Below, in pieces: positions 14,631 to 36,458 of a DNA stretch of 51,901 nt. The stretch covers positions 1 through 51,901 of the forward strand of contig CAZQGT010000001.1 in the NCBI GenBank assembly GCA_964593005.1, in the 5' to 3' direction. Source of the stretch: an uncultured Planctomycetales bacterium (lineage in GTDB: Bacteria > Omnitrophota > Gorgyraeia > Gygaellales > Profunditerraquicolaceae). The notes under the pieces were generated by a model. The model saw only the letters and a list, made by a program, of their open reading frames with translations, made no database searches and had not been told where the DNA came from. Every line of letters starts with the position of its first letter. Position 1 is the stretch's first letter. The position numbers were made by a program, and so were the translations under genes.

Positions 14631-16196
14631 ATGAAAATAAAAAAAATAATATTAGTCAGACCTCCCAGGTATCTTTGGCCATTTATCAATGAATCAGATA
14701 ATTTTCTCCTGCCTCTTGGGCTGCCTTGTTTGGCCGCGGAGATAAGATTAAAACTTCCGGATCTGGAAGTAAAAATCATTGATTGCCCCCCGCTTAAAAT
14801 AGGATGGGATAGCTTAGCTAAGTTGATAAAAGAAGAAAAACCGGATATTGTTGGAGCGGGAGAAGAAGCCCTTTATTCCCATGAGGCTCTCAGGCTGTTT
14901 AAGCTGACAAAGGAGATCGATACTTCTATAATTACAGTTGCCGGAGGGCATTTTTTTTCCTGGATGGTGGAATACGGATTAAACAGCTCTGTTATAGATT
15001 TTATCGTAAGGTTTGAAGGTGAAGAGACAATTGTAGAGTTAATCAAGGCGCTTAAGGAAAATAAAGACTTATGCCAAGTCAATGGCATAGCTTTTAAAAA
15101 TAACAGCCAGATAATCAGGACAGCCTCCAGGCCGTTGATAAAAGACCTTAATACGCTTGCTTTGCCAGCGTTTGACCTTATGCCGATGGGTAAATATTCT
15201 CCTTTTGGCTATCTCTGGCCACAAAGCGTGACATTGGAGCACTCCCGGGGTTGCGTGGACAGGTGCAATTTTTGCTCCCTGTGGACATTTTGGGGGCAGC
15301 ATTTAAAAACAGACATAGAGAAGGGGGAGCTGGATGTATCTCCAAGATATAGGACAAAAAGCGTAGAAAGGACGCTGGAGGAAGTGGATATTGCCTATAA
15401 AAGGTACAATAGAAAATATATTCTTTGGGCAGATCCGACTTTTAATGTTGATCTTAAATGGACAAATGATTTTTGTGAAGGACTGTTGAAAAGGGGCTAT
15501 AAAGATTTGCATTGGTGGGCTTTTTTAAGGGCAGATTATTTGCTACGCGATGAAAAGGCAGGAGTTTTAAAGAAAATGGTTATGGCCGGGCTAACCCACC
15601 CGCTTATCGGCGTGGAGCGCGGTTGTACCGAAGACCTTAGGAAGATCAAGAAATCAGTTTATACCCGTGATTTAATAAAAGAGGTTTTTCTTATTTTTAA
15701 GAATAAATACCCGCAAGTATTCCGGCAGGGAACTTTTGTTACCTGCTTGCCTTTTGATACCAGGGAATCCATGCTTGATTTGGTAAAATACGCTGTTGAA
15801 ATAGACATAGATTACCCGGCTTTCCATCCTGTAGCTCCGGTTCCCGGGACATTCCTTTATCAGGAAGCGATAAAGAATGATTCTTTAGAGGTAAAAGATT
15901 TTAAGCGGTATGATTGGTCTACTCCCATAATGCGTTCAGATAATGGATTGTCAATGGAAGAATTTGCCAGGCTGAACATGGAGCTTAACAAACGGTATAT
16001 ATTATATCGGCCGCATTGGTTAATCAGGGGGTTATTCTCTCCATATAAGCATAAGAGGGGGCTTTACTGGTGGTTTCTCCGAAATACAATGAAAATGCTT
16101 TTCCTTGGCGTGATGGATACCATTTTAGGAAAAGAGAAGTTTAATGGAATCACAGGTTTTATGCGCCTTAAAAAACCTAAATGGTATGATTCATAA
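14631..16196 (+). CDS. B12-binding-domain radical SAM protein (class B rSAM) 1
   Basis: N-terminal Rossmann-like cobalamin-domain pattern (KIILVRPP, PDIVGAG, ITVAGGHFFS, FEGEETIVEL), then SRGCVDRCNFC. Confidence 0.88.
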   Translation: MKIKKIILVRPPRYLWPFINESDNFLLPLGLPCLAAEIRLKLPDLEVKIIDCPPLKIGWDSLAKLIKEEKPDIVGAGEEALYSHEALRLFKLTKEIDTSIITVAGGHFFSWMVEYGLNSSVIDFIVRFEGEETIVELIKALKENKDLCQVNGIAFKNNSQIIRTASRPLIKDLNTLALPAFDLMPMGKYSPFGYLWPQSVTLEHSRGCVDRCNFCSLWTFWGQHLKTDIEKGELDVSPRYRTKSVERTLEEVDIAYKRYNRKYILWADPTFNVDLKWTNDFCEGLLKRGYKDLHWWAFLRADYLLRDEKAGVLKKMVMAGLTHPLIGVERGCTEDLRKIKKSVYTRDLIKEVFLIFKNKYPQVFRQGTFVTCLPFDTRESMLDLVKYAVEIDIDYPAFHPVAPVPGTFLYQEAIKNDSLEVKDFKRYDWSTPIMRSDNGLSMEEFARLNMELNKRYILYRPHWLIRGLFSPYKHKRGLYWWFLRNTMKMLFLGVMDTILGKEKFNGITGFMRLKKPKWYDS

Positions 16197-16223
16197 TTTA
16201 GTCATATTTTCTGAAAGGCAGAT

Positions 16224-17627
16224 TTGGCAGAAGTATTCCTAGTAAATCCTTTAGCAACCATAAATAGGCAACATGTTCATTTTCTTCGCGACTGGTGTGG
16301 CGGAGAACTACCCGGGTCAGTGGTTTACCCGCCGCTAGACTTAGCGTATGTAGCGGCGTTGCTGCAGCAAAATAATATAAGTGTAAGTCTAATTGACGCC
16401 AACGCGTCGCATATGCCCCATAAAACAATCGTTGAGATGATAGTAAAACAGAGGCCCAAGTTTGTGGGTATTCCTTCGGCCTGGGGAAGCATCAAAGATG
16501 ACCTGTTGCTTGCAAAAATGATTAAAGAAAGAAATCCCGCCGTTAAAATAATTATTTCAGGGCCGAATGTTACTGTAGATCCGGCAATAGCGTTAGATTC
16601 AGGATGTGTAGATTATGTCATTTTAGGGGAACTCGAAAAACCTTTTTTAGAGATCATAAAAGGCCGGGTTATCCGTAACGTGGCCTATAAAATAAATAAC
16701 GAGGTTGTTGTTACTGATAGGGATTTGCTTGAAGATTTAGATTCGCTCCCATTCCCCGCCAGGGACTTACTGCCGAACAAAAGATACCAGGCGCCTTTTA
16801 CAGCAAGAAATCCGTTTACCCTGATGAATACGAGCAGGGGGTGTCCTTATAAATGTAATTTTTGCCAGGTTAATATTTGGTATATGAATAAGGTTCGATT
16901 CCGTTCTGTTGCTAACGTTCTAGGAGAAATAGATGAGATAGCCAGAAGATCTAGAATTAAAGAGATAATATTCAGAGATCAAACCTTGACTATTAACAGG
17001 CAAAGGCTTCTTTTGATTTGCCGCGGTCTTGTTGAAGGTAAATATAATCTTTCCTGGAGATGTTTTTCTTGCGTGGATACCATAGACAGTGAATTGTTGA
17101 ACGCGATGAAAGAAGCGGGATGCCATCAGATTTGTTATGGTCTGGAGAGTGGATCGCAGAAAGTCTTGGATTTAAGCGGAAAAGGGATTACTTTGGAGCA
17201 GATAAAAAATGCCGTAAAATTAACCAAAAAAGCCGGTATTGAGGTTTCGGGGGCATTTATGTTTGGTATGTATGGAGATACAAAAGAGACTATTGAAGAT
17301 ACGCTCAAGCTTGCTTTAAGCCTGGATCTTGATTTTGCCCAGTTCCAGTTAGCGTTTCCGGTTCCTTCTACAGAATTTTATACCCAACGTAATAAAATAA
17401 ACAGCTGCTCAAATATTTTGCCAGATTCTTTGCGCTGGTATGGATGGGATCAGCCGGATGATACCGGTAAGATTTTACAGAATAAATTAAAAGAGGCATA
17501 TAAACGGTTTTATTTAAGAAGAAAATATCTTTACAGGCAACTGAAAAGTTTAAAAAACCCTAAGCGGTTTGCGTTTCAGGTAGGTACGGCTTTAGATTTT
17601 CTGGGGGTTTTGGCAAAAAGGGGTTAA
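16224..17627 (+). CDS. B12-binding-domain radical SAM protein 2
   Basis: TTG start. FLVNPL, PKFVGIPS, IIISGPNVT and ILGELEKPFLEI, then SRGCPYKCNFC. Confidence 0.88.
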   Translation: MAEVFLVNPLATINRQHVHFLRDWCGGELPGSVVYPPLDLAYVAALLQQNNISVSLIDANASHMPHKTIVEMIVKQRPKFVGIPSAWGSIKDDLLLAKMIKERNPAVKIIISGPNVTVDPAIALDSGCVDYVILGELEKPFLEIIKGRVIRNVAYKINNEVVVTDRDLLEDLDSLPFPARDLLPNKRYQAPFTARNPFTLMNTSRGCPYKCNFCQVNIWYMNKVRFRSVANVLGEIDEIARRSRIKEIIFRDQTLTINRQRLLLICRGLVEGKYNLSWRCFSCVDTIDSELLNAMKEAGCHQICYGLESGSQKVLDLSGKGITLEQIKNAVKLTKKAGIEVSGAFMFGMYGDTKETIEDTLKLALSLDLDFAQFQLAFPVPSTEFYTQRNKINSCSNILPDSLRWYGWDQPDDTGKILQNKLKEAYKRFYLRRKYLYRQLKSLKNPKRFAFQVGTALDFLGVLAKRG

Positions 17628-17661
17628 TATTTTTTCGGCTAAAAATTCTAAAATAAATATA

Positions 17662-18351
17662 ATGATGAATTGGGTTAGGGATAAGATTTGGGGTTGGCCC
17701 GGAGGGCTGGCTTGGAAAATAAGCTCTGTATTCATTATGGGGTCCATAAAGAAGAAATATGAATTTTTTATTTCCTTAATGCAGCCTAAGCCTGATGACA
17801 GGATTCTTGATGTCGGAGTCGGCTCACACGTATTCTTAGGTACAAATTTCCTAGAGCAATGGTATAAATATCCAGAGAATATCATAGCTTTAGCTTGTGG
17901 CAAGGCCGAAGAATACGATAATTTCCCGCAAGATTTCCCTAAAGTAAAACTTATTTTTGGCGATGGGAGGGCGATTCCGTTTCCTGACGATTATTTTGAT
18001 ATCGTATTTTGTAATGCAGTAGTAGAGCATGCCGGCAAGGCTGAGGATCAAAAGAAATTAATCCGTGAAACCATCCGGGTTGGCAAAAAGGCATTCATTA
18101 CTACTCCAAATTTTTGGTTTCCTATGGATACGCATACCTTGTTGCCTTTTGTCCATTATCTGCCGATAAGGGCGCGTTTTTGGGTATATAAAATATTTGG
18201 TAAGGAATATTTTGCTGACATCAATAGGTTAAACCTTCTTACGGTAAAAGAGTTTCTTTCTTTTTTTCCGGAAGAAACTAAAGTAACGCTTATAAAGCAG
18301 AGGTTTCTAGGGTTAGTTTCAGGGTTTATTGCAATAGCCAATAAGCAGTAA
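17662..18351 (+). CDS. Class I SAM-dependent methyltransferase
   Basis: Motif I ILDVGVGSH; FDIVFCNAVVEHAG matches the Methyltransf_11-like pattern. Confidence 0.8.
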   Translation: MMNWVRDKIWGWPGGLAWKISSVFIMGSIKKKYEFFISLMQPKPDDRILDVGVGSHVFLGTNFLEQWYKYPENIIALACGKAEEYDNFPQDFPKVKLIFGDGRAIPFPDDYFDIVFCNAVVEHAGKAEDQKKLIRETIRVGKKAFITTPNFWFPMDTHTLLPFVHYLPIRARFWVYKIFGKEYFADINRLNLLTVKEFLSFFPEETKVTLIKQRFLGLVSGFIAIANKQ

Positions 18352-18413
18352 TTATCTTTTGTGCTAAAATGCAGCTATATATTAATGACAGATACGCAGA
18401 CAAGGATTGAGAA

Positions 18414-19586
18414 ATGAAACTTTCTATTCCAACCAATTGGCAGCAGGATTTGATTCCTAGATTAGAAAAAGAGAATATTGATGAGTTGTATGGAAAACTT
18501 GCCTGTGATTTTGTAGGTGGAGGCAGGGCTTCTTTCCTGATACCGCATGTTTCTAGAAAACAAGCCGCTCTCCATGTTAAAGAGGCCCATCAAAACGGTT
18601 TGAAGTTTAGTTATCTTTTAAACACTACCTGTTTAGGTAATTTAGAGTGGACTGCTTCGGGACAAAAAAAGATACGCCAGCTTTTTGATTGGTTAGTATC
18701 TATTAAAGTAGACCAGGTTACCGTAGCTATCCCCTATCTTTTGGAATTAGCAAAGAAGTGTTATCCTCAACTGAAAGTGGCAATATCAACACAGGCGGGT
18801 ATAGATACGGTTGAGAGGGCACGATTTTGGAATGATTTAGGGGCGGATAAGCTTACCTTAAGCGTGGTTGATGTTAACCGTAACTTCGGACTGTTAAAGA
18901 GAATAAGGAAAAATGTGAAATGCGAGCTTCAGCTGATCGCCAACCTTCTTTGCCTGTACAGGTGCCCTTTTTATAAGTATCATTCGGTTTTAAATGCCCA
19001 CGCATCTCAGTCAGGTTATCGGCTGAAAGGTTTTGTTATTGATTATTGTTCTTTAAAATGTACGTCCTATCGGCTCAGCCATCCCGTAGAGTTTATTCGC
19101 TCTCTCTGGATCAGGCCGGAAGATACCCATTATTATGAAGATGTGGGTATAGATAGCATAAAGCTGGTGGATAGAGGTATGAATAGTGAGGCAATTTCCT
19201 TAATCACTAATGCTTATTCTAAAAGGAGATATGATGGCAACCTTTTAGACTTGATGCCTCATGCAACCAAGAATATTATGTTTCAGGATTCGGGTTTACT
19301 GCATAAACTAAGGTATTTTCTCAGGCCGTTTTTGGTAAACATCTTTAAGCTTCAAAAAGGCAGGGGCCTTTTTTCCGGAACCCGTATTTATATTGATAAT
19401 AATAAATTAGACGGTTTTATTAATCATTTTTTGAGTAATGACTGTTCTTTACGTTCCTGCCAGGAATGCACATATTGCCAAAATGTATCTAATGAAGTTC
19501 TTAAAATTTATCCTGATGATCAGCTTAAGCGTATGGATAAATACATATCCGAGCTTGTTTCAGGGGATATGTTTAAATACTTTTAA
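18414..19586 (+). CDS. Peptidase-U32-family protein (family that includes the O2-independent hydroxylases UbiU/UbiV, RlhA, TrhP)
   Basis: The layout matches the U32 TIM-barrel pattern: GGGRASF..., GLKFSYLLNT, VDQVTVAIPYLLELAKKCYPQLKVAISTQAGIDTVERARFWNDLGADKLTLSVVDVN, followed by a Cys cluster (CLYRCPFYKYH). Confidence 0.65.
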   Translation: MKLSIPTNWQQDLIPRLEKENIDELYGKLACDFVGGGRASFLIPHVSRKQAALHVKEAHQNGLKFSYLLNTTCLGNLEWTASGQKKIRQLFDWLVSIKVDQVTVAIPYLLELAKKCYPQLKVAISTQAGIDTVERARFWNDLGADKLTLSVVDVNRNFGLLKRIRKNVKCELQLIANLLCLYRCPFYKYHSVLNAHASQSGYRLKGFVIDYCSLKCTSYRLSHPVEFIRSLWIRPEDTHYYEDVGIDSIKLVDRGMNSEAISLITNAYSKRRYDGNLLDLMPHATKNIMFQDSGLLHKLRYFLRPFLVNIFKLQKGRGLFSGTRIYIDNNKLDGFINHFLSNDCSLRSCQECTYCQNVSNEVLKIYPDDQLKRMDKYISELVSGDMFKYF

Positions 19587-19607
19587 CCCTCATATTTAAA
19601 CGGGACT

Positions 19608-21125
19608 ATGGCGAAAGTTTATTTAATATATTTTGATATTAACACTAATATGCCGCCAGGGCTGAACCATGGTTTAGCTTCTTTAGCCGCGGTTTTACGC
19701 AAAAATGGCCACAGCATTGGATTTTACCATTTAATCAGAGAGGATAATCCTGAAACCGTGGTTGATAAAGTCTTAAAATTTAGCCCGGATATAGTCGGGT
19801 TTTCGTTTGCGACTAACCAGAGGAAACACCTTGATATATATTCTAAGGCTATCTCACGCAGAAGCAAAGTGCTCCAGGTGGCAGGGGGGATTCACCCTAC
19901 TCTGGATCCTGTTGATGTATTCAAGGTGGATTCAATCCAGGGGGTTTGTATTGGAGAAGGAGAGTATACTTTTCCTGCTCTGCTGGAAAAAATAGATTCG
20001 CAGGAACCTGTTTCGGGTATTCCGGGGTTCTACTGGCGAATTGACGGCGGGCTGATAAGACAAAACCCTATTCCCCCGATTGAGCCGGATCTTTCAAGAT
20101 TGCCTTTTCCCGACTATTCTATTTTTGAAACCGGGAAAATAAATAAATATAATTCAGGCTGGATGCCTATGATGATAAGCAGGGGTTGTCCGCATAATTG
20201 CTCTTATTGCTGTAATCATGCCATACGTTCCGTTTATCCTAATCCCAAAGATCACCTGAGATTTTTACCGGTTGAATACGCGATTAAAATGATCAAAAAT
20301 AACTTATCCAAATATTCAGGTATTCAAGGCATTGAATTCTGGGATGATAATTTGACTTTAGATAAAAGATGGTTTGAAGAATTCTCCAGGTTATATGAAC
20401 GTGAAGTTAAACTGCCTTTTATATGTTATTCCCGGGCCGAATATATAACGGAAGATATATGTTTAACATTAAAAAAATCAGGGTGCGTCCTTGTAAAAAT
20501 GGGGGTAGAGAGCGGGAACGAAGAGTTCAGAAGAAATATCCTGAATCGCAGCGTAAGCAACAACCAGATTATTAAGGCGTTTAAGTTATTGAAAGATTTT
20601 GATATTCAGAGGCTTTCTTTTTCTGTTTTAGGTTTTCCTTTTGAAACCAAAGAACTAATGGAAGAAACGTTATTACTGAATAAACGCTTAAAACCAGATA
20701 TAGGAATTGTATTTTATTTCTTCCCATTTCCTAAAACAGAGCTGCATTCTGTTTGCAGGAGATCGAACTTATTAATAGAATCCAGCAAAAGATTGACTAA
20801 TTTTCTTGAACAGCCTGCAATCAAACCCTTATATTATAAACAAAAAGAATGTATAAAGGTAAACTATAGAATCAGGACTTATTTTTTATCCCGGATCATA
20901 ACAAGAAACCTCCCATTTTGCTCTGAGTTTATCTCGGAAGCGCTGTATTTCTTATTGAATATCTATCCGTTATCATTTTTCTTCCGCCTTCTTATGAATA
21001 GCGCGATATCCAGGAGAGTTGGGCTTAAGAGTTATTACAGCCAGTCAATGGTGGTTAACAGGAAACGCAATATTAAACAATTATTACAAGAAGATGTTTT
21101 AGAAAAAGAACCGGTTAAGCTTTAA
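19608..21125 (+). CDS. B12-binding-domain radical SAM protein 3
   Basis: KVYLIYFD, PDIVGFSF, LQVAGGIHPT and CIGEGEYTFPAL, then SRGCPHNCSYC. Confidence 0.88.
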   Translation: MAKVYLIYFDINTNMPPGLNHGLASLAAVLRKNGHSIGFYHLIREDNPETVVDKVLKFSPDIVGFSFATNQRKHLDIYSKAISRRSKVLQVAGGIHPTLDPVDVFKVDSIQGVCIGEGEYTFPALLEKIDSQEPVSGIPGFYWRIDGGLIRQNPIPPIEPDLSRLPFPDYSIFETGKINKYNSGWMPMMISRGCPHNCSYCCNHAIRSVYPNPKDHLRFLPVEYAIKMIKNNLSKYSGIQGIEFWDDNLTLDKRWFEEFSRLYEREVKLPFICYSRAEYITEDICLTLKKSGCVLVKMGVESGNEEFRRNILNRSVSNNQIIKAFKLLKDFDIQRLSFSVLGFPFETKELMEETLLLNKRLKPDIGIVFYFFPFPKTELHSVCRRSNLLIESSKRLTNFLEQPAIKPLYYKQKECIKVNYRIRTYFLSRIITRNLPFCSEFISEALYFLLNIYPLSFFFRLLMNSAISRRVGLKSYYSQSMVVNRKRNIKQLLQEDVLEKEPVKL

Positions 21126-21200
21126 TGACGTAAAATAAAAGAGCTCAAGACGAATTTGAGTATTCTCCCATCTCTAAAATTGTTATTATAACTATTTTAG

Positions 21201-21428
21201 GCATTTTATATTTTTAGCTGGCTTGTTTCCAACCCGGTGCGGGCAGGCAGCATAGACGGCTTAGTTTATTATAAGTATGCGGGTATAGACGGTATAAAGC
21301 TGTTAGGCAGGGGCATGACAAGAGAAGGATTTCTTTAATTACTAACGCCTATTCTAATAGGCAATATGAGGGCAATCTTCCGGACTCAATACCACATGTG
21401 AGCAAGAACATTATGTTTCAGGAAGATA
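21201..21428 (+). pseudogene. Chimeric gene remnant: an N-terminal fragment of a GT-C paralogue fused in frame to an internal fragment of a U32 paralogue
   Basis: 21201-21266 (AFYIFSWLVSNPVRAGSIDGLVYY) resembles 27481-27555 of the GT-C gene (FLYFSWFVSSPVRAAKIDSFILYN). 21267-21423 aligns at DNA level with 19131-19288 of the U32 gene, with a 1-nt deletion near 21330. The shifted frame still reads ISLITNAYSNRQYEGNLPDSIPHVSKNIMFQE versus ISLITNAYSKRRYDGNLLDLMPHATKNIMFQD. There is no start codon, and a stop lies at 21336. Confidence 0.8.
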
Positions 21429-21447
21429 TGTTAAATATTATCAAAAT

Positions 21448-23208
21448 ATGAAGTTAGCGAGAACTTATTTTCCTAAGATTAATTGGTTTATTTTTGCGTT
21501 GATTGTTTACTTTTGCCTGTCCGTATATTCATCTCCCCGAATAGGCCTAGGAAGCGGTGAGTTTAATATGGACATCTCTTCGCCGTTCTACCCTTTGGTA
21601 GTTACTGATATTGTTAAGGATGGCGATGTGCTTGTAGATGAATATGCCGTACCAGTACCTGGATTTTTCTCCGGTGCGCGTATTAACCGGATAGGGCCGC
21701 TAGAGATGATTCGGACAGTAGTTGAACCGGAGTATTTATTACGTATTTCAAAAGCGGTATTTCCCGTTATGAAAAACAAATACACCGGGGCCCTGGCACA
21801 TTATTATGTAAATTTTTTCAATCTTTTCGGTAACAATAAAGTATTCCTGGTTCATTTTGCCAGCATTTTTTTAGGGGCGGTAATTATTATTTTAACTGCC
21901 TATCTTTCCTATCTCTTCCTGGGAAGAAAAGTCGCTATTACTTGCGCCTTATTATTATCTACAAATCCACTATTCATTATTTTTAAGCGGCTTCCGGCAT
22001 TCCCAGAGCATTTTACAGAATTATTTTCCATCGGCATTCTAACTATCTTGCTGCTTTTCTTAAAAACGCAGAGAAATAGATACTTTTACTTTTTATCATT
22101 TTTAGTCGGCTTAGCTATATATCAAAAAGTGACTATTTTCTGGACGTTATCGGCTATTTTTGTTATAGCCTTTGTTTTTCGTCTTGGAATAAAGTTGCGC
22201 TTAAAACAATTGATACTTGGTTTTATCTTTTTTCTGATCGGTATTTTCCCACTGATTTTATATAATTTCCTAGATTCAGGGACAATAAGCTTTTCAACCA
22301 GTTTTTTCCTGGGGGATGATTTTCTGAAAGGGCTAACGCTAAGGATATCCGATTGGTTTGGCAGGTTTATTTATATTTTTGGAGACCCAATAGGTTTTTT
22401 CCGCTACTTGTTTTATGGGGTAAGGGCGCCGGCAGTTAATTATTTTTTCTATGTTTTACTGTTTGCTTCTTTTTTGTTCCCCGTTTTTACCCTGTTGAAG
22501 AAAAAACCATGGATTGAGCAAAAAAAAGTGGCATTCTTCCCGCTGCTGTTGGTATTAATGCTCTTTTCCATGAGCATTATTAATCGGAGCGGGTTTGATT
22601 TTACGCACACCTTTTTATTAGTTCCTGTTGTTGCAATAGTTGAATCTACATTTTTGGTCCATCTTCTAGAAATATTAGAAAAAATAATTATAAAATATAT
22701 TAAACTCCCTTTTAAACGGTATCTCTACTTTATTTTAATAATCCTGGTGCTTCTGTTTCAAACAAGTCAGGTGTGTGAATATTATTTCGAAGAAAGTAAA
22801 GATAGCAGTCCTGTGATGATTATGGTTGATGCGCATAAGGAGCTTGTCAAATATCTGCTCAATGAGAAGATCACTCATCCTGTTACTACAAATTTCAATC
22901 TTATGGGTATCGTAGAATTTTTAAGTCAAGAAAAGGTTATGCCGATTTACTATTGGATAGTGTGGAAAGACGCAGAAGTTAAAGACAATGCCCTTGGGCG
23001 AATAATTTTAAAAAATTTAAATGGTTATTATATTTTAAAGGTTGGATTTAAAGTTGATATATTTAACGTCTTCCCGGAACCAAGCGTTGCTAATTTCCTG
23101 GAGGTTGCAGAGAAAAACAATGTTAAGCCTGTCCTTTTAAGGAATATTCATTCAAGAAATGGTACGCTTATGTTTTCTATATATAAACTAGGTGCTGTTA
23201 ATATCTAA
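21448..23208 (+). CDS. Polytopic membrane protein, ArnT/PMT-like GT-C glycosyltransferase candidate
   Basis: 586 aa with many hydrophobic helices. The N-terminal third shows the GT39/GT83-like pattern (FLGAVIIILTAYLSYLFLGRKVAITCALLLSTNPLFIIF). It has a soluble C-terminal domain. Confidence 0.5.
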   Translation: MKLARTYFPKINWFIFALIVYFCLSVYSSPRIGLGSGEFNMDISSPFYPLVVTDIVKDGDVLVDEYAVPVPGFFSGARINRIGPLEMIRTVVEPEYLLRISKAVFPVMKNKYTGALAHYYVNFFNLFGNNKVFLVHFASIFLGAVIIILTAYLSYLFLGRKVAITCALLLSTNPLFIIFKRLPAFPEHFTELFSIGILTILLLFLKTQRNRYFYFLSFLVGLAIYQKVTIFWTLSAIFVIAFVFRLGIKLRLKQLILGFIFFLIGIFPLILYNFLDSGTISFSTSFFLGDDFLKGLTLRISDWFGRFIYIFGDPIGFFRYLFYGVRAPAVNYFFYVLLFASFLFPVFTLLKKKPWIEQKKVAFFPLLLVLMLFSMSIINRSGFDFTHTFLLVPVVAIVESTFLVHLLEILEKIIIKYIKLPFKRYLYFILIILVLLFQTSQVCEYYFEESKDSSPVMIMVDAHKELVKYLLNEKITHPVTTNFNLMGIVEFLSQEKVMPIYYWIVWKDAEVKDNALGRIILKNLNGYYILKVGFKVDIFNVFPEPSVANFLEVAEKNNVKPVLLRNIHSRNGTLMFSIYKLGAVNI

Positions 23209-23235
23209 ATATTAATTTGTAAAAAGGTGCGAGTA

Positions 23236-26027: not shown

Positions 26028-26072
26028 GTCCTGAACCCGTGCTGGTTGCTATCAAATATATAGGGTAAACTT

Positions 26073-26639
26073 ATGTCGCTTCTCAATGTTCTTTTTAGGA
26101 GAGAAAGAATTAAACAAGCCTCGCGTTATATCTTAGATGATTCTGTTGTATGCGACATTGGTTGTGGAATAAATGCAGAGTTTCTATTATCCGTAGAGCA
26201 TAGGATTAGAAAAGGTATAGGCATTGATTTTCGAATTAAGAATACCAAGTTTAGAAATATTGAATTGTTAAAGTTTGATTTGGAGAAACCTTCCAAACTA
26301 GAATTTAATGATAACCAATTTGATCATGTTGTGTTATTAGCGATATTAGAGCATCTTAGGCGCCCTGAAATGATAGTAAAAGAAGCGTATCGAATTTTGG
26401 CACCCGGGGGGTCTTTAATAGTTACTTCTCCCGTTCCTCTAAGTAAAAATATCCTAAGATTATTGTTATTAACGCCGTTTTTTGATGACGAGGAAGAGGC
26501 TTCAAAACATAAGGGTTACTTTTCAGGGAAAGCGCTCAAAGAGATATTCTTGGATGCAGGTTTTGTTAATATAACATTCAAGAAATTCGAATTTGGTTTT
26601 AATAGTATAGTTGCAGGATATAAGCAAAGTAAAGTGTAA
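26073..26639 (+). CDS. Class I SAM-dependent methyltransferase
   Basis: Motif I VCDIGCGINAE; FDHVVLLAILEHL; LAPGGSLIVTSP. Confidence 0.8.
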   Translation: MSLLNVLFRRERIKQASRYILDDSVVCDIGCGINAEFLLSVEHRIRKGIGIDFRIKNTKFRNIELLKFDLEKPSKLEFNDNQFDHVVLLAILEHLRRPEMIVKEAYRILAPGGSLIVTSPVPLSKNILRLLLLTPFFDDEEEASKHKGYFSGKALKEIFLDAGFVNITFKKFEFGFNSIVAGYKQSKV

Positions 26640-26674
26640 TTTTATTGGTTGTTTAATTAAATCTACTTTATGTA

Positions 26675-27385: not shown

Positions 27386-27425
27386 AATTCCGGGTAAAGT
27401 TAGCTTGTAAGCCAATATTCTAAAT

Positions 27426-28952
27426 ATGCAAGGTAGACCAAAAATTATCCCATTACCATTATTAGCAATATTGATTATGTTCGGTATCTTTTTGTATTTT
27501 AGCTGGTTTGTTTCTAGCCCGGTACGGGCGGCCAAGATAGATAGCTTTATTTTGTACAATACGGATGAAGTCTTCCGGTTTTATCTAGTCCGCTTATCAT
27601 TGCAAAGCGTGTTCGTATTTGTTAATTCATATGTCAGGCCAATATACATGATAATTGCCGCAATATTCTACAACTTACTTTCAGCTGGAATGCTTTCTTT
27701 GCGCTTGATGAATGTTTTATTTTCTTGCGCCTCGCTCTATATAATTTGGAAGTTATTAAACAAAATTGGAATTAAAGATAGCGTTTCGACCTTGGCTATC
27801 TTAGGTATCGCAACAAACCCGATTTATTTCCTGAATTCGATTTCTGTGCAGGCAGTAAATATGTTTTGTTTCTTTTTGGTAACAGCTACGTATTTATTCT
27901 ATTGCAAGAAATACCTGCTGTCTGTTATTGCCACGTCATTGTTGCCCCTAATAAGGCCGGAGGGGTATTTAAGTTTGTTCATATTGCCAATTTTTCTGTT
28001 AAAGGAGAATAGGCAGAACATTAAATATGCCATTTTGTTATTTTTACCGCTAATCGTTTGGGGGTTAGCAAATGTTTTATTGCTTGGGGATGGTCTCTTA
28101 AGCAGGCTATTTTATCAATCCTTGTTGGCGTCGCATAACGTTTTTGGCAAGTTCCCCTTAGGGCAAACATTATCAATGCGCCCAACCTTTACCATAACCC
28201 CGCTCGAGTTCTTATTATCTTCAGGCTACCCAGTCTTTTTATTATTTTTAATCGGTTTTGGCATTAAATTATTTGATAAAAGATATTCATTTATTTCTGT
28301 ATCTTTCCTCGCTTATTTTTTCTTCTATAGCGCTATGACTATAGTCGTAAATCTGGGTTTTGAGAAAATAAACGTTCACGGCATTATGGCGTTGGTATCA
28401 ACTCCGATTGTTCCGTTTTTAGTTTTATTTGCAGTTATTCCGGCAACAATATTAGAAAGGTGTAAGTCCACCGGAAGGTTCGTTGTAGTCCTTTTTACAG
28501 CCATTTTCATTTTAAGTAATTTAATTCAAATAACCGCATTCCGTCAGGACCCTGCCTTGCGCTGGCGGGCCATATTTAATCTTAAAGAAGAAAATGTTTT
28601 AAAGGATACGGCTAAATGGCTGGGTGAATATGCGAAAGAGAACGATACGGAGAGGCTGTATATATCTGTTGATGAAGCAACTCACAAATTTACCAATATT
28701 TTCCTTATTTATTTGCCCCCTGGGATAAAATTTTATATGCTTTCTGTTGAAGATAAGAATATTTCACTTATAGACTTAGAAACTATTAAGGTTTTGCCGT
28801 TTCGGCGCGAAGGTTCGGTTTATCTTAGCCGGAATAAGGGCTTGACTGATCTTGGCGGCCAAATTAAATGTAAACTAATTAAAGGGTTCGGCGATATTTC
28901 TTTATATTTTTATGCGTTAGAAAAGGCAGGAGATATTCAGCCAGGCATATGA
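27426..28952 (+). CDS. Polytopic membrane protein, ArnT/PMT-like GT-C glycosyltransferase candidate
   Basis: 508 aa and multi-pass. LRLMNVLFSCASLYIIWKLLNKIGIKDSVSTLAILGIATNPIYF matches the GT39-type helix pattern. Confidence 0.55.
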   Translation: MQGRPKIIPLPLLAILIMFGIFLYFSWFVSSPVRAAKIDSFILYNTDEVFRFYLVRLSLQSVFVFVNSYVRPIYMIIAAIFYNLLSAGMLSLRLMNVLFSCASLYIIWKLLNKIGIKDSVSTLAILGIATNPIYFLNSISVQAVNMFCFFLVTATYLFYCKKYLLSVIATSLLPLIRPEGYLSLFILPIFLLKENRQNIKYAILLFLPLIVWGLANVLLLGDGLLSRLFYQSLLASHNVFGKFPLGQTLSMRPTFTITPLEFLLSSGYPVFLLFLIGFGIKLFDKRYSFISVSFLAYFFFYSAMTIVVNLGFEKINVHGIMALVSTPIVPFLVLFAVIPATILERCKSTGRFVVVLFTAIFILSNLIQITAFRQDPALRWRAIFNLKEENVLKDTAKWLGEYAKENDTERLYISVDEATHKFTNIFLIYLPPGIKFYMLSVEDKNISLIDLETIKVLPFRREGSVYLSRNKGLTDLGGQIKCKLIKGFGDISLYFYALEKAGDIQPGI

Positions 28953-32010: not shown

Positions 32011-33522
32011 ATGTCTTTATTTAAAGTGGTATTGATAAATCCTGATTCGCCATTAAGGCAGGCTACTGGCAACCTTAAGAGGTTTGTTACTCCTGTGCCC
32101 CCTTTGGGGATCGCCTGCATTGCCGCTGTTTTAGAGAAGAATGGCATGGAAGTGGTAGTTTTTGACCAGGTTGCAAATAGCATGAGCAATGCAGAGCTTG
32201 CCCAGAGGGTTAGAGAAGAATCTCCCGGTCTTATAGGGATCTCCTGCCTTACTCCGGTTATGAATAATGTTAAGGCGCTTGTAGGCCAGATCAGGTCCTT
32301 CTCCAGGAATATCCCGATTGTCCTGGGGAATACCCATGCTACTGTATTTGCAGATGAGCTATTAAAACATGGGATAGCAGACATCATTGTTTCCGGAGAA
32401 GGGGAAGATAGCATGCTCGAAGTCTCTCTGGCAATTAAAGGAAATAAAAGCCTGGAGGGTATTAAGGGAATCAGCTTCGTCCGGGGTAGGCTAAATTACC
32501 ATAATCCGCCAAGAGAATCTGCCAGAGACCTGGATGAATTTCCCTATCCTGCTTGGCATTTGCTTAATTTAAAAGATTACGAGAAATGCCCCTTGCTTTG
32601 TCTTGATGAGGGGCTTACTGTGCCGATCCAGGCCTCCAGAGGCTGTTTTTATCATTGCACTTTTTGTTCTCAGGACCAGATATTTAAGAAATTCCGATAT
32701 CGGCAAGTAGATAAGGTGATAAATGAAATAGAATATTTTTACCAGCGTTTCGGGGTCAGCCGTTTTGTATTTATTGATGCGAACTTCCCTTTTTCAAAAG
32801 AATACGGGTTAAAGTTTTGTGATGAATTTATCAGGCGCGGTTTGCACAAGAAAATAAAATGGCTTACCGAAACACGGGTAGACCTTGTAGACCTTGAGTT
32901 GTTAAAGAGGATGAAAGAGGCTGGCCTGCATTTAATAATGTATGGATTTGAAGTAGGCAACCAGGGAATTCTTGATAGCATACAAAAGAAAACTACGCTT
33001 GGCCATGCGAGAAGGGCAATGGAATTAACTAAAAAAACCGGGATATATACATTGGGTTTATTCATTTTGGGGATGCCCGGCGAAACCCGGCAGACATGCG
33101 AAGAGACAATAAGGTTTGCCAAGGAGTTGGATTGTGATGTTGCCAAGTTTAATATTGCCGTGCCTTTGCCGGGGTCAAAGTTTTTTGAAGATTATAAGGA
33201 AAAAATTAAGAATAAAGACCCTGAAACATTTACAAGCTGGTATGATTGGGTGCCTTTTTCCGGAAAGCTGCTTTATGTCCCCGAAGGGATGACAGATTAT
33301 GAGCTGAAGAATTTACAGCGCAAAGCGATGTTTGAGTTCTACTTGAGGCCACGCTTGATTCTAAGGCATGTCCTCAATGGCACAATTTCATTCAGAAATA
33401 TGTGGCATGGGGCGAATATATTAATTAGCGGTTTCTTCAGGATGGCAGTTTGTTCCTTTATGAACTTGCCGGTCCTAAGGAATCTTAAAAATAAAAATTC
33501 TAGGTTCGAAAATTACGGATAA
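32011..33522 (+). CDS. B12-binding-domain radical SAM protein 7
   Basis: KVVLINPD, PGLIGISC, IVLGNTHATV and VSGEGEDSMLEV, then SRGCFYHCTFC. Confidence 0.88.
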   Translation: MSLFKVVLINPDSPLRQATGNLKRFVTPVPPLGIACIAAVLEKNGMEVVVFDQVANSMSNAELAQRVREESPGLIGISCLTPVMNNVKALVGQIRSFSRNIPIVLGNTHATVFADELLKHGIADIIVSGEGEDSMLEVSLAIKGNKSLEGIKGISFVRGRLNYHNPPRESARDLDEFPYPAWHLLNLKDYEKCPLLCLDEGLTVPIQASRGCFYHCTFCSQDQIFKKFRYRQVDKVINEIEYFYQRFGVSRFVFIDANFPFSKEYGLKFCDEFIRRGLHKKIKWLTETRVDLVDLELLKRMKEAGLHLIMYGFEVGNQGILDSIQKKTTLGHARRAMELTKKTGIYTLGLFILGMPGETRQTCEETIRFAKELDCDVAKFNIAVPLPGSKFFEDYKEKIKNKDPETFTSWYDWVPFSGKLLYVPEGMTDYELKNLQRKAMFEFYLRPRLILRHVLNGTISFRNMWHGANILISGFFRMAVCSFMNLPVLRNLKNKNSRFENYG

Positions 33523-33523
33523 G

Positions 33524-34945
33524 ATGAATGTCCTTTTGATTTCTGTCCCTACAATTAGGATCAGGTATAATATAAGCGGTGTTTTTCCTTTGCCTCCTTT
33601 GGGCCTGGCATACATCGCTGCAATTTTGAAAAACAGCGGTTTTGCCGTAGAGATATTAGATATGGATGTTTTGAGAATTAAATTAAGCGATCTTTCTTCG
33701 CGCTTAAAGGGATGCGATTATCCGGTTGTCGGGGTGAGCTGCCGCAGTATTTTTAGTTTGGGGGATGCTATCAGAATAATAAAGGAAATTAAATCGGTAT
33801 TACCCGGCAGTACGGTTATAGGGGGAGGGCCGGGTTTTATGTTTTCGCCGGAAATAATCTTTAAGCATATGCCGGGTTGCGACATAATTGTCCATGGCGA
33901 AGGCGAAGATACCATGTTAAATTTATGCAGTAGGTTAAAAACAGGAAACAAAGATTTGAGCGCTTTAGAAGGTATTTCTTACCGGAGTGGAGAGCAGATT
34001 ATTTCCAGGTCAAGGCAGCATTATTTGGACCTTGATAAACTTCCGCTTCCTGCCAGGACGTTATTGCCGAATAGCTGCTATAGAATGCATCCTCCGTTTG
34101 GGGTTTATCCTCCCGCGACTTTAATGGAAACAAGCAGGGGGTGTGAGTATGGCTGTACTTTTTGCTCTTTACGCAGGCCGGTAAAAGGAAGGTCAGTGCA
34201 TCAGGTGATAGATGAAATTCAGGGATTGATCAGGGAATATGGGGTAAAAGAAGTACAGTTTATAGACCCTAATTTTACTTATGACCAAAAAAGGATAATG
34301 GATTTATGCCGCCAATTAATAGACAGGAAAATTAAAGTCAGATGGACCTGTAAAACCCGGATTGACTTAGTATCTGAAGAGTTACTTAAGGCGATGTCTC
34401 AGGCGGGTTGCTATATGATTTCCTACGGAGTGGAATCAGGGTCCCAGAAGATTCTGGATACACTGGACAAGGGAATTACCATTGAAGAGACAGAGCGGGT
34501 TTTTCGTTTAACCAGGCAGGCAAAGATTAAGACCCTGGCTTATGTAATCATCGGCTCTCCCGGAGAGGATGATAATACGGTTAAGCAAACCACGGATTTT
34601 CTTATAAAGCTAAAGGCAGATTTTGTTTTATTCGGTGAACTATTGCCTGGGCTTAATTCTATTTTGGTTAAGCAGACAATAGGCAAGAAGATGTTCAGCG
34701 AAGAAGACCTGTTTGATTTTTATGTATTCGGAAAGAATATATTTGATAGAAATAACTTTAGCCATATCTCTCAGGTTAAGATTAAAAAGTGGCTGATAAT
34801 GGCATATAAGTCATTTTATTTAAGGCCGGGTTATTTTATTCAATGTCTCATAAAATTAAGGAATGCGCAGGAATTAGTTTGTTTGGCCAAAGGCGCCTGC
34901 CTTTTGCTCCTTGATACATTTAAGAAAAAATCCAAGGTTTTTTAA
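33524..34945 (+). CDS. B12-binding-domain radical SAM protein 8
   Basis: NVLLISVP, YPVVGVSC, TVIGGGPGFM and VHGEGEDTMLNL, then SRGCEYGCTFC. Confidence 0.88.
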   Translation: MNVLLISVPTIRIRYNISGVFPLPPLGLAYIAAILKNSGFAVEILDMDVLRIKLSDLSSRLKGCDYPVVGVSCRSIFSLGDAIRIIKEIKSVLPGSTVIGGGPGFMFSPEIIFKHMPGCDIIVHGEGEDTMLNLCSRLKTGNKDLSALEGISYRSGEQIISRSRQHYLDLDKLPLPARTLLPNSCYRMHPPFGVYPPATLMETSRGCEYGCTFCSLRRPVKGRSVHQVIDEIQGLIREYGVKEVQFIDPNFTYDQKRIMDLCRQLIDRKIKVRWTCKTRIDLVSEELLKAMSQAGCYMISYGVESGSQKILDTLDKGITIEETERVFRLTRQAKIKTLAYVIIGSPGEDDNTVKQTTDFLIKLKADFVLFGELLPGLNSILVKQTIGKKMFSEEDLFDFYVFGKNIFDRNNFSHISQVKIKKWLIMAYKSFYLRPGYFIQCLIKLRNAQELVCLAKGACLLLLDTFKKKSKVF

Positions 34946-34961
34946 TGAATCCATAATAAAA

Positions 34962-36458
34962 ATGAAGAAAAATACGGTTATTTATTTATTCCTCATAATC
35001 TTATCAGCTTTCTGCCTGAGGTTATTTAATCTGGGGGCAAAGTGTTTATGGTTTGATGAAGCCCTGGATGTCTATTATGTCTGGACTGAAGGCCTGCTTT
35101 TTCCCTCCGTGGCTTCAATCTCTCCCGCCTATAGTATACTTTTATATTTTTGGAAGGGGGTTGCGGGTAATGAATTTATGCTCAGATTGCCCTCTGCCAT
35201 TTTTAGCCTAAGTTCGGTTTATTTCATTTATTTATTTGCCTCTCTCGTATTTAACAAGAAAACAGGGTTGATAAGCGCGTTTATCCTGGCAATTTCTCCC
35301 TTTAGCTTGTATTATGCGCAAGAATGCAGGCCGTATTCTTTATCTTGCCTGCTGGTTTTATTAACTTCCTATTTTTTTGTAAAATGCCTGAAAATTAACA
35401 GAGTTGTTCATTGGGTTTGTTTTATATTTTTTTCGCTGCTAGGGGTATATACGCACTATGTTACGTTTTTGATTTTTTTTCTTGCAGATGTTTTCCTGTT
35501 AGTTAATTTCAAAAAATACAGCTATTTGAGAAAAAGGTGGTATATTGCAAACGCGGTTGTTTTAATCCTTGCCTTGCCTGCAGTTAAAATAATATTTTCA
35601 ACTCCATATCTTTATACTAATTGGTGGGTTCCTTCTGCAGGATGGCACTCCATTCCAATTACCTTGAAGAATTTTTCTATAGGGTATAATGCCCCGCTAT
35701 CTTTATATTCCAGCGCCTTTTTCGTATTTGCATTTTTGTTCGCATACGGAGCCATAAAATCCAGGAAAAATGAATTTTTCTGGTTTTTTATCGACTGTTT
35801 ATTCCTTCCGTTGTTTGCAGCGCTTTTGTTTTCGCTGCTGAAACCGTCTTATTATATAGACAGGCATCTAATTCCGTTTTCCGTATTTTTTTATATCTTA
35901 GCAGCATACGGGGCCTCTGTGATAAGAAGAAAGTACCTGTTCTCGTTCGTATTGGCGGGAATTTTGGCGGTTTCGTTAATAGCAATAAAGAATTATTACG
36001 CAAATTATCTGCCAAATTCTTTTATCCATCATATAGGAGTCCAGGAAGAAAAAGATGCAAGAAAATTGTCAGGTTATATTATGGATAATTTTAAACCCGG
36101 GGATGCGCTATGTTTCAGCGACGAAAATGCAATTCCCCAGCTTTGGTATTATCTCGGCCCGCATTATTTAAGGGGGACTTATAACACGGGCATTTTCAAG
36201 GAACTGGATAAGAAAATAATATTGGAATACGATAAAAAAGAAGATATAATCCTGGCATTTTCTTTTCTTAAGCCCAGTTCCCCGGGCTGCCATAAGCCGG
36301 TTAGTTTTTCTTTAGAGGGCTGCAACAGGATTTGGCTGGTTGCTTGTTATAACGAGAAGGAGTTAGTAGGGGCCCTGGACCGAAAATTTACCAGAAAAAG
36401 CTTGGTTAGTTTTAAAGGGGTAAGGGCATATCTTTTTCTTGTAGAGCAAAAGTTATAA
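34962..36458 (+). CDS. GT39-type (ArnT/PMT_2-like) GT-C membrane glycosyltransferase
   Basis: LRLFNLGAKCLWFDEA (first-loop acidic motif) and LRLPSAIFSLSSVYFIYLFASLVFNKKTGLISAFILAISPFSLYYAQECRPY are the best GT39-like match among the four paralogues. I prefer the ATG at 34962 (MKKNTVIYLF) to the TTG at 34911. Confidence 0.7.
   Translation: MKKNTVIYLFLIILSAFCLRLFNLGAKCLWFDEALDVYYVWTEGLLFPSVASISPAYSILLYFWKGVAGNEFMLRLPSAIFSLSSVYFIYLFASLVFNKKTGLISAFILAISPFSLYYAQECRPYSLSCLLVLLTSYFFVKCLKINRVVHWVCFIFFSLLGVYTHYVTFLIFFLADVFLLVNFKKYSYLRKRWYIANAVVLILALPAVKIIFSTPYLYTNWWVPSAGWHSIPITLKNFSIGYNAPLSLYSSAFFVFAFLFAYGAIKSRKNEFFWFFIDCLFLPLFAALLFSLLKPSYYIDRHLIPFSVFFYILAAYGASVIRRKYLFSFVLAGILAVSLIAIKNYYANYLPNSFIHHIGVQEEKDARKLSGYIMDNFKPGDALCFSDENAIPQLWYYLGPHYLRGTYNTGIFKELDKKIILEYDKKEDIILAFSFLKPSSPGCHKPVSFSLEGCNRIWLVACYNEKELVGALDRKFTRKSLVSFKGVRAYLFLVEQKL

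Follow-up and report, generated by a model that had tools for sequence, protein, structure and literature searches.

A radical-SAM-dense, strain-variable GT-C gene array in an Omnitrophota genome

The DNA analysed here, contig CAZQGT010000001.1 from an uncultured bacterium of the Omnitrophota (51,901 nucleotides; this whole stretch is called the window), carries at positions 14631–36458 an array of forward-strand genes in which radical SAM enzymes and methyltransferases recur between membrane transferases of the GT-C type. Such an array raises the question of whether one module of tailoring enzymes plus a dedicated transferase was duplicated repeatedly, as a first-pass annotation of the sequence had proposed, or whether the genes came together in another way, and what their products might do in concert. 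The locus is an unusual, radical-SAM-dense and strain-variable GT-C system. On balance, we regard it as probable that the interval is the hypervariable centre of an envelope-glycoconjugate locus, composed of anciently diverged genes that have been reshuffled by block replacement, in which lipid-linked donors would be tailored by radical SAM enzymes and transferred by GT-C enzymes.

Gene content and mosaic structure of the array

The gene map was built from open reading frame (ORF) calls and Pfam scans; labels A1–A6, B1–B5 and C1–C6 denote the genes of segments A, B and C, and D those downstream. The array encodes eight B12-domain radical SAM proteins (rSBs), four methyltransferases (MTs), one U32-family protein, one GT2 glycosyltransferase and three GT-C enzymes, with a fourth GT-C gene outside it, starting at 39336. 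Over the broader interval 12980–47283 of the window, 11 radical SAM proteins are encoded. The gene order given earlier for the three segments agreed gene for gene with the ORF calls and Pfam matches, and the enzyme classes were borne out by Pfam and NCBIfam.

Segment A opens with the rSBs A1 (14631–16196; BchE model, 182 bits, below cut-off), which forms the head of the array, and A2 (16224–17627; HpnJ model, 208 bits, below cut-off). These are followed by A3 (17662–18351), a class I S-adenosylmethionine (SAM) MT matching Methyltransf_11, A4 (18414–19586), the U32-family protein (Peptidase_U32, PF01136, 48.8 bits), A5 (19608–21125), a BchE-like rSB (below cut-off), a decayed internal U32 gene remnant (21250–21430) and A6 (21448–23208), a rare GT-C-type membrane transferase. 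Segment B comprises the rSBs B1 (23236–24636, alternative start 23227; HpnJ-like) and B2 (24633–26027; BchE-like), the class I SAM MT B3 (26073–26639), B4 (26675–27385), a soluble GT2 that resembles polyprenyl-phosphate-sugar synthases and for which no transmembrane (TM) segment was predicted, and B5 (27426–28952), a predicted GT-C protein with about 10 TM segments. Segment C consists of C1 (28949–30607), an rSB resembling Ta0216 (TIGR04190), the class I SAM MTs C2 (30607–31254) and C3 (31330–31968), the BchE-like rSBs C4 (32011–33522) and C5 (33524–34945; below cut-off) and the PMT_2-type GT-C C6 (34911–36458).

Genes of the array are closely packed, with an intergenic spacing of −35 to +75 nt and a sole exception of 322 nt at the gap that contains the gene remnant. 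The tight segment junctions described earlier were confirmed, A6 and B1 being separated by 27 nt, or by 18 nt if B1 starts at 23227, and B5 and C1 overlapping by 4 nt. The terminator and promoter reported 5' of the array were both located, as a terminator-like hairpin at 14523–14550 (+) with an 8-bp G+C stem and six U residues running to 14556 (−17.1 kcal/mol, z = −2.45), and as promoter-like hexamers (TTGAAA-16-TAGAAT) on its 3' side at 14568–14595 (+). This layout is compatible with the suggested single transcription unit of ~22 kb. Promoter-like and terminator-like matches inside the array occurred at the frequency of shuffled sequence and so neither support nor refute the suggestion; a single long transcript would be possible.

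Comparison with sibling alleles revealed the architecture of the interval. Several of the sibling contigs come from JGI samples 3300013136-8 and represent near-identical Candidatus Omnitrophota strains; nucleotide comparisons were made by blastn, and loci other than the window are given by L numbers. A conserved head (A1, A2, MT, U32) and a conserved tail (C4–C6) enclose a variable middle (A5, the U32 remnant, A6, B1–B5, C1–C3), whose exact bounds depend on the allele compared. The sibling strains are 90–98% identical in the flanks, in the head (A1 to U32/A5) and in the tail, whereas their middle differs and holds only two GT-C genes. Against L047, nucleotide identity was 90.4% over 11108–21256, the region 21256–27489 had no counterpart, B5, C1 and C2 (27489–31251) were 67% identical, C3 had no match, and identity was again 90.7% over 32023–37316 (C4–C6 and D0). 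At the position of C3, L047 carries a MiaB-like radical SAM gene and a radical SAM/SPASM gene. Protein identities to L047 were in accordance, at 84–98% in flanks, head and tail and 56–63% for B5, C1 and C2. L050 and L055, which form a single 44.7-kb contig, were 94.5% identical to the window up to 18335 (the end of A3), 72% over the U32 gene and 97.8% from 33763 (C5) to the end of the window; the middle showed almost no match, limited to the first 600 nt of C1 (67%). In this contig, the U32 gene is directly followed by a B5-type GT-C gene, two other rSB genes, a MiaB-like radical SAM gene and an MT gene. A5 is present in the window and in L047 and absent between U32 and GT-C in L001 and L050. 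The count of three "cassettes" is thus specific to the window allele.

A strain-specific block of 6.2 kb (21256–27489, +) runs from the U32 remnant through A6 and B1–B4 into the first codons of B5. L047 has no counterpart of this block, and L001 matches it at 82% nucleotide identity. The "gene remnant" reported earlier for segment A exists: at ~21250–21430 lies a piece of a U32 gene with a broken frame, whose nucleotide identity is 72–75% both to window positions 19115–19290 and to U32 in L001 and L047. Its position coincides exactly with the left end of the extra block. In L001, U32 lies directly 5' of an A6-type GT-C gene, followed by B1- and B2-like genes, all with 80–82% nucleotide identity to the window, and this arrangement explains the scar. 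Based on these comparisons, the block is an insertion, probably from a divergent allele, and the simplest history is that an L001-like block (U32-A6-B1-B2-B3-B4...) was joined behind A5 of an L047-like allele, after which the redundant U32 gene decayed. The GC content of the variable middle is 0.34–0.37, compared with ~0.40 in the conserved parts. The same arrangement recurs in L002 and L003, two independent contigs of different sample origin, and the window is thus not an assembly chimera. A scan of genome contigs with B1 returned only relatives of at most 35% identity, which served as outgroups, so no close species representative was available. Population-variable surface and polysaccharide cassettes, without rSB/GT-C content, have been described in Omnitrophota chromosomes (preprint 10.64898/2026.06.07.730766).

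These observations bear directly on the proposal that an ancestral module of tailoring enzymes plus GT-C underwent two or three duplications in place, followed by divergence, so that each copy would deliver a differently modified unit, perhaps to a common acceptor. The visual periodicity of the gene order and the occurrence of the same enzyme classes in every segment speak for such a history, and the decayed second U32 copy indicates that part of the head block was formerly present twice. The GT-C periodicity is, however, statistically weak, as 6 of 680 placements satisfy a criterion that was picked after the data had been seen, and gene content is uneven, with U32 in segment A only, GT2 in B only and two MTs in C only. 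All-vs-all BLASTP, phmmer searches against foreign loci, a neighbour-joining (NJ) tree and a GT-C cross-search showed no cassette-wise correspondence: genes at equivalent positions are not each other's closest relatives. Every rSB pair shares 21–35% identity, the best pairs being C4–C5 from the same segment (35%) and A2–C5 from different positions (31%). The MTs are 24–30% identical over partial lengths, and the GT-C proteins gave no match among themselves at BLASTP E ≤ 1e-3 and none at phmmer E ≤ 1.

Foreign genes outscored the in-window paralogues. An rSB of L004 scored 257 bits against C4 and one of L005 scored 250 bits against A2 and 204 against A5, compared with 209 bits for the best pair within the window; the higher-scoring foreign rSBs come from Nitrospirota, Methanosarcinales and other metagenome-assembled genomes (MAGs). 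In the NJ tree of 75 sequences, which was computed without bootstrap support, each window rSB joins its allelic orthologue and then, C1 excepted, sequences from other genomes, and no window rSBs are sisters. True tandem duplicates behave differently in the same tree, where the five rSB paralogues of L007 (Eubacteriales MAG, 802–8486) and the three of L023 (Saganbacteria MAG) are monophyletic. The eight rSBs are nearest to at least three NCBIfam models, all below cut-off, namely BchE (A1, A5, B2, C4, C5), HpnJ (A2, B1) and Ta0216 (C1). Alleles differ through replacement by non-homologous genes and block insertion, not through gain or loss of homologous units: siblings have two GT-C genes in the interval, and the extra block resembles allele L001 and not its own neighbours. 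In related loci, moreover, GT-C genes frequently stand side by side. From these sequence comparisons, we reject the duplication interpretation and consider in-place duplication a highly improbable origin of the array. A division of labour, with certain GT-Cs being served by certain sets of cytoplasmic tailoring enzymes, remains plausible. The case also calls for caution, as a repeating pattern of gene classes in raw sequence can mimic iterated duplication.

Membrane transferases, tailoring enzymes and related loci

The expectation that all four membrane ORFs encode GT-C-type proteins held. A hydropathy scan gave 7 to ~12 TM segments in A6, B5, C6 and D2 (39336–41129, +), the fourth, PMT_2/ArnT-like member. 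A6, C6 and D2 matched PMT_2 above its gathering score of 26.1 (29.3, 48.9 and 43.6 bits, respectively). B5 had no match in Pfam, NCBIfam or a PDB sequence search. Its AlphaFold2 (AF2) model, computed with eight homologues (pLDDT 76, pTM 0.82), shows a helical bundle and, C-terminal to it, a beta-rich domain, and Foldseek matched this model to PDB structures of ALG9, STT3, ALG12, PglB, ArnT, AglB, AftA and Pmt4 and to one GPI transamidase subunit at E ≤ 0.001. The GT-C matches had a probability of 1.00 and TM-scores of ~0.45–0.53, and EmbB was also among the fold matches; the model thus assigns a predicted GT-C fold to B5. Comparison of the subfamilies by hhalign gave 94.7% for B5–C6, 98.8% for C6–D2, 96.9% for A6–C6 and 96.6% for A6–D2. 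The four proteins belong to four subfamilies connected only via profile or fold comparison, pairwise searches being unable to link them. An exact sequence look-up of C6 returned no entry, probably owing to a start-codon difference. For A6, the AF2 model computed from three sequences reached a pLDDT of 40, and the GT-C assignment comes entirely from profile evidence. Both A6 and B5 are rare: A6 has a single close homologue among 5.8 billion proteins, and the B5-type family amounts to 46 representative clusters at E ≤ 1e-30 among 1.84 billion. The first-loop catalytic Asp/Glu anticipated for these enzymes has acidic counterparts in C6 (WFDE, family-invariant), D2 (PDE) and B5 (invariant Asp39 and a conserved NTDE), whereas A6 lacks a recognisable DE motif.

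Partnerships between rSB and GT-C genes were found well beyond the sibling strains. In five of six further metagenome loci with a B5-type GT-C (L059–L064), this gene adjoins an rSB gene, and in four of these loci (L060, L061, L063 and L064) it lies next to or near a C6-type GT-C gene; the sixth locus, L062, combines it with a D2-type GT-C and an ArnC-like GT2. L063 also contains three U32 genes and a GDSL gene, and L059 a sulfatase-family protein. The Omnitrophica MAG locus L049/L067 begins with an A1 orthologue, an rSB, two PMT_2 proteins, a GDSL protein, an ArnC/AglJ-like GT2, another rSB and B5- and C6-type GT-Cs, and continues with an rSB, a GDSL protein, a U32 protein, Wzy_C, GT4 and Glycos_transf_4 of the WecA/MraY family; this neighbourhood is of the classical surface-glycan type. 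L069 carries, in order, an A1 orthologue, PMT_2, an rSB, a small U32-like ORF, an rSB, PMT_2 and two rSBs. Nitrospirota locus L010 encodes a Wzx-like flippase, a PMT_2 protein and an rSB, with a second PMT_2 protein farther downstream. In L016, from outside the phylum, an rSB gene overlaps an AglJ-like GT2 gene by 4 nt, and the locus also encodes a PMT_2-like protein (below the PMT_2 gathering score) that carries an F5/8 type C domain, and a weakly YfhO-like protein. In L025, an rSB gene adjoins a PpgS/AglJ-like GT2 gene. Across these loci, the rSB/GT-C partnership, often with GT2 and in Omnitrophota with U32, is thus recurrent, but strict alternation of the two is not, as GT-C genes are often adjacent.

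The tailoring enzymes are predicted to be soluble. All eight rSBs contain PF02310 and PF04055 above gathering scores as well as the CX3CX2C motif (8/8), and rSBs, MTs and the U32 protein have no convincing TM segments, a crude hydropathy scan giving one marginal N-terminal match each in B2 and C5. The best NCBIfam matches of B4 were AglJ (92.5 bits, cut-off 325), dolichyl-phosphate hexose transferase, ArnC and PpgS, all below equivalog cut-offs. The U32 protein A4 has six Cys residues that are invariant across six homologues and an extra C-terminal CxxCxxC motif; against the models of characterised hydroxylases, its scores were far below family level (TrhP, 24 bits, cut-off 534; UbiU, 17.5 bits, cut-off 440). 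One U32 protein of L065 reached 97.5 bits to the UbiU model. In L068, a gene for a 95-aa type II chorismate mutase (13454–13741) lies between U32-family genes downstream of the A1 orthologue. Chorismate mutase is a source of prephenate. Based on the six invariant Cys residues, the UbiU and TrhP matches and this chorismate mutase, the U32 protein is probably an oxygen-independent, prephenate-dependent Fe-S hydroxylase.

Some of these features would also suit the tailoring of an isoprenoid, quinone-like molecule or membrane lipid, in which radical SAM enzymes, UbiE-like MTs and a UbiU/V-like U32 protein modify a prenylated lipid and the GT-Cs add head groups or use the lipid as a carrier. The best rSB matches are BchE, HpnJ and HpnR, a "lipid biosynthesis B12 rSAM" model was also matched, C2 and C3 match Ubie_methyltran, and the UbiU-like U32 protein of L065 and the chorismate mutase beside U32 genes fit this idea, as does a gene for a UbiA-family prenyltransferase just 5' of the A1 orthologue in L066 and L067. 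All these matches are, however, well below cut-offs and generic for their superfamilies, and the window has no UbiA gene and no isoprenoid or quinone-core genes. Strain hypervariability and neighbours of the GT2, Wzx, Wzy_C and WecA-like types are typical of surface glycans and not of core lipids, and we consider a lipid pathway unlikely.

For an envelope glycoconjugate, the genes suggest four steps. Sugars or related head groups would be loaded onto polyprenyl phosphate at the cytoplasmic face of the membrane, by B4 in the window allele; that the GT-Cs may use such donors is suggested by gene context, with B4 beside B5 and similar pairs in L016, L025, L049 and L062. The lipid-linked units would then be remodelled by the soluble rSBs, SAM MTs and the U32 Fe-S protein, and flipped across the membrane, perhaps by an ABC-2 system. 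A GT-C with a periplasm-facing active site would finally transfer each unit to an acceptor in the envelope. Because strains differ in their sets of tailoring enzymes and GT-Cs, they would be expected to display different surface structures. In a more specific form, which we put forward only tentatively, polyprenyl-phosphate-linked units might be rebuilt without oxygen (C-methylation, deoxygenation, ring contraction or hydroxylation) by rSBs and U32 proteins and installed by GT-Cs in Omnitrophota, some Nitrospirota and other anaerobes, swapped gene sets generating surface diversity and a cross-linked peptide encoded upstream possibly serving as anchor or acceptor.

Several points weigh against the assignment to envelope glycans. 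The ORF and Pfam survey of the window found no nucleotide-sugar genes, no initiating phosphoglycosyl transferase and no flippase of the GtrA, ArnE/F or Wzx type; the only export candidate in the window is the ABC-2 transporter at 42984–44494. For four GT-Cs there is one polyprenyl-phosphate-sugar-synthase-like GT2, encoded within the strain-specific block. At the aligned first-loop position, A6 shows no acidic pair, its candidate residue D64 being kept in one homologue only. The rSBs score far below every named-family cut-off in NCBIfam, with BchE, HpnJ and Ta0216 as best matches, and the solved structures closest to them are QCMT and AprD4, the latter being nearest to A2 (101 bits) and second-nearest to C4. 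QCMT is a protein methylase and AprD4 does not bind cobalamin (PMC12931638). Given these scores and structures, both methylation and a sugar substrate would be assumptions for the rSBs, as would the term "methyltransferase"; NCBIfam and PDB searches for their reaction type returned generic sub-threshold matches only. The rSB tree covers very deep divergences without bootstrap support, in agreement nevertheless with the bit scores. The head of segment A may belong to another pathway, a point taken up with the upstream peptide below. We are aware of no case in which a class B radical SAM enzyme acts on an envelope glycan, and our literature searches found none.

The upstream peptide, the array head and the flanking genes

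Immediately 5' of the array lie two genes that recur with A1. The first is a small ORF (12844–12951, +) preceded by a strong GGAGG ribosome-binding site, which encodes a Lys-rich candidate precursor peptide of 35 aa (MKAKKASKKTKAKKVNKTTKGKKKLSRYCRSGRVLW) with a single Cys. The ORF is kept in all sibling alleles. It also occurs in L067 (~6790–6901), L068 (~8390–8471) and L066 (1–78), and its C-terminal core is KLSRYCRSGRVLW in the window, L067 and L068 alike, and FCRCGRVLW in L066. The second gene (12980–14494, +) encodes a radical SAM/SPASM protein resembling maturases of the PapB/SCIFF type (Pfam Radical_SAM and SPASM; rSAM_PapB, 226 bits, cut-off 340) that also matches the nif11, SCIFF and QhpD maturase models at 180–187 bits. 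From their sequences, the two look like an undescribed peptide–maturase pair. The maturase frame is open from 12980, with ~100 conserved codons 5' of the CX3CX2C motif, but no ATG, GTG or TTG occurs in it 5' of 13286. Where the L050 gene is called from a TTG, the window reads CTC and L047 CTG, which implies a non-canonical start or a defective gene.

Four lineages (the window, L066, L067 and L068) combine the peptide, a PapB-like maturase and A1. In L068, the maturase orthologue (57% identity) adjoins the A1 orthologue, in L066 (43%) it is found two genes 5' of A1, and L067 retains only a maturase fragment ~650 nt beyond the peptide ORF. Between maturase and A1 orthologue, L066 and L067 carry a UbiA-family prenyltransferase gene (L066 1683–2567, L067 8017–8703), whose nearest models are ChlG, BchG and DGGGP synthase at scores below cut-off, and a "variant rSAM" gene that has decayed in L067. 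A1 itself, with its CX3CX2C motif at residue 208, has 550 homologues at E ≤ 1e-30; among the 120 matches listed, identities are 62–99% and the named ones are nearly all Omnitrophota. In agreement with this, MoxR and A1 of the window share 90%-identity clusters with proteins from Candidatus Omnitrophica MAGs, which places the window in the Candidatus Omnitrophota. Because A1 is conserved across the phylum and often lies 3' of the peptide and PapB-like maturase, with UbiA in L066 and L067, the head may serve another pathway; segment A may thus begin with a conserved peptide- or lipid-linked pathway to which variable glycan genes were appended.

In its strongest form, this would make the array a pathway for a ribosomally synthesised and post-translationally modified peptide (RiPP), with the 35-aa peptide cross-linked by the PapB-like enzyme, then C-methylated or otherwise modified by rSBs, MTs and the U32 protein, exported and possibly glycosylated by GT-Cs or used as a cofactor-like product. 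Proteusins and bottromycin offer comparisons for C-methylation, and pyrroloquinoline quinone (PQQ) and mycofactocin for cofactor-like products. Besides the co-occurrence in four lineages, this is favoured by the invariance of the peptide core LSRYCRSGRVLW across lineages whose A1 is only 69–81% and whose maturase is 57% identical. Models of the ranthipeptide, SCIFF and QhpD types are matched by the maturase, the rSBs match RiPP C-methyltransferase models below threshold, and the best match of the downstream GT2s D8 and D9 is the mycofactocin MftF model (below cut-off). On the other side, the terminator-like hairpin and promoter-like site separate maturase and A1 in the window, where the maturase ORF has no canonical start codon. 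An invariant core fits poorly with two to eight strain-variable tailoring enzymes, and the GT-C active sites are periplasmic whereas the peptide has no signal sequence. Arrays of rSB and GT-C genes also occur without peptide or maturase in the available stretches of L069 (motif search and gene list) and in L059–L064 and L010 (motif search only), and Wzy_C, WecA-like, GT4 and GDSL neighbours point toward glycans. A RiPP-like product accordingly seems improbable to us, and an envelope glycoconjugate remains the reading we prefer.

The block downstream of the array is conserved in all alleles. Its first gene, D0 (36491–37054, −), encodes a 187-aa secreted protein without a family match and forms a conserved right boundary. 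A c-di-GMP-I-GGC riboswitch aptamer (37182–37257, −; Rfam RF03167, 62.3 bits, gathering score 59) lies ~128 nt upstream of D0, in the divergent intergenic region facing D1. D1 (37590–39287, +) is a 565-aa coiled-coil repeat protein with an N-terminal membrane anchor or signal and no Pfam match; it is rich in Lys, Gln and Glu, contains about a dozen degenerate repeats, KKQAALDKKAQLQ(K/Q)ERE..KIADQKA, is conserved among alleles and adjoins D2. In composition, it resembles TolA domain II. The genes that follow D2 (41163–47283, +) encode, by Pfam and NCBIfam, a protein of no recognised family, an N-terminal-twitch radical SAM protein, an ABC-2 permease, an ABC ATPase, an STM4011-like radical SAM protein and two MftF/EpsD-like GT2s. 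D4 (42038–42970, +), directly 5' of the ABC-2 transporter genes, has a SPASM/twitch-like Cys-rich domain N-terminal to its radical SAM core (NF033640, 86.5 bits, below cut-off). The idea that D4 is a broken gene, raised by the SPASM domain preceding the core, was rejected, as the protein matches the N-terminal-twitch radical SAM family.

One further observation concerns the left flank, where the CTP synthase gene (10072–11673, +) has an in-frame TAA at 10549–10551, at a conserved Gln position that we take to be the Gln of EAIRQ in Escherichia coli PyrG. The gene is intact in siblings L047, L050 and L051 (533 aa). The TAA is a nonsense variant, a pseudogene mutation or a consensus error. An alternative genetic code was rejected, as all other ORFs are intact under table 11 and the CTP synthases of relatives are intact with Gln.

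Comparison with known systems

Searches of the literature for clusters that combine rSB with GT-C, rSB with polysaccharide or U32 with rSB genes returned nothing relevant, and we know of no described system, nor did these searches find one, in which rSBs and U32 proteins are interleaved with GT-Cs. The heavily methylated O-glycan of the S-layer of the anammox bacterium Kuenenia (PMC5088730) was considered as a comparison and dropped: the organism studied here belongs to the Omnitrophota, and that paper names no gene cluster. If the envelope assignment is true, radical SAM chemistry would enter bacterial envelope glycobiology as an anaerobic counterpart of oxygen- or NAD-dependent sugar tailoring, and a role would emerge for part of the uncharacterised "B12-binding radical SAM" genes and of the orphan PMT_2-type GT-Cs of uncultured phyla. 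By the allele comparison, the locus is a hotspot of strain diversity in the Omnitrophota, whose cells are ultra-small and possibly host-dependent, and variation of the surface at this locus could govern attachment or the specificity for phage or prey.

The SCIFF and ranthipeptide systems resemble the upstream pair, with a short conserved peptide immediately 5' of a PapB-like maturase throughout the phylum. They differ in that the window peptide is extremely rich in Lys and contains one Cys only, the maturase falls short of the equivalog cut-off, and its link to the array is one of adjacency only. With U32 hydroxylases such as UbiU/UbiV, TrhP and RlhA, A4 shares the U32 domain and conserved Cys residues, and a relative has a chorismate mutase gene between U32 genes; however, the similarity of A4 amounts to 17–24 bits, the C-terminal CxxCxxC is additional, and by context its substrate would be neither a quinone nor RNA.

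Radical SAM enzymes with a B12 domain are known to act on sugars, as in the ring contraction of hopanoid-linked glucosamine by HpnJ and the C-methylation of aminoglycosides by GenK, GenD1 and Fms7, while AprD4 carries out C3' deoxygenation and uses no cobalamin. The rSBs of the window have the same domain architecture and CX3CX2C motif, and A2 and B1 match HpnJ best, but their scores are far below the cut-offs and none is a member of these families. The known enzymes also belong to secondary-metabolite or hopanoid pathways and do not lie beside GT-C genes.

Closer parallels come from pathways that deliver lipid-linked sugars to the periplasm. Three-component glycosylation systems (GtrA/GtrB/GtrC, ArnC/ArnE-F/ArnT, GacI/GacL and CsbB/GtcA/YfhO) resemble the array in that B4, a GT2 similar to polyprenyl-phosphate-sugar synthases, adjoins GT-Cs with a first-loop acidic motif, a pairing that recurs in related loci. 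Unlike them, the window has no GtrA-type flippase, has four GT-Cs for one such GT2, and interleaves eight rSBs, a U32 protein and four MTs. Donors that are tailored while lipid-linked are known from mycobacterial decaprenyl-phosphate-arabinose, which serves the GT-Cs Emb and Aft, and from the deformylation of undecaprenyl-phosphate-linked Ara4FN by ArnD. The proposed route would share with them a cytoplasmic alteration of the donor and its use by several dedicated GT-Cs, and the fold matches of B5 include AftA, EmbB and ArnT. The window, in contrast, encodes radical SAM and U32 Fe-S proteins in place of flavin/NAD epimerases or deformylases, with no orthology, and a UbiA protein of the DPPR-synthase type, as in the decaprenyl-phosphate-arabinose route, is absent from it. 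Tailoring by radical SAM and U32 proteins would suit an anaerobe.

In its genetic organisation, the array resembles O-antigen and capsule loci, in that conserved flanks enclose a centre that is non-homologous or 56–72% identical in strains otherwise 90–98% identical, of lower GC content and marked by a recombination scar. It differs from them in its cargo, which consists mainly of radical SAM and GT-C genes where such loci usually carry nucleotide-sugar genes and GT-A/GT-B transferases. Taken together, the locus most likely decorates the cell envelope by means of as yet undescribed chemistry.

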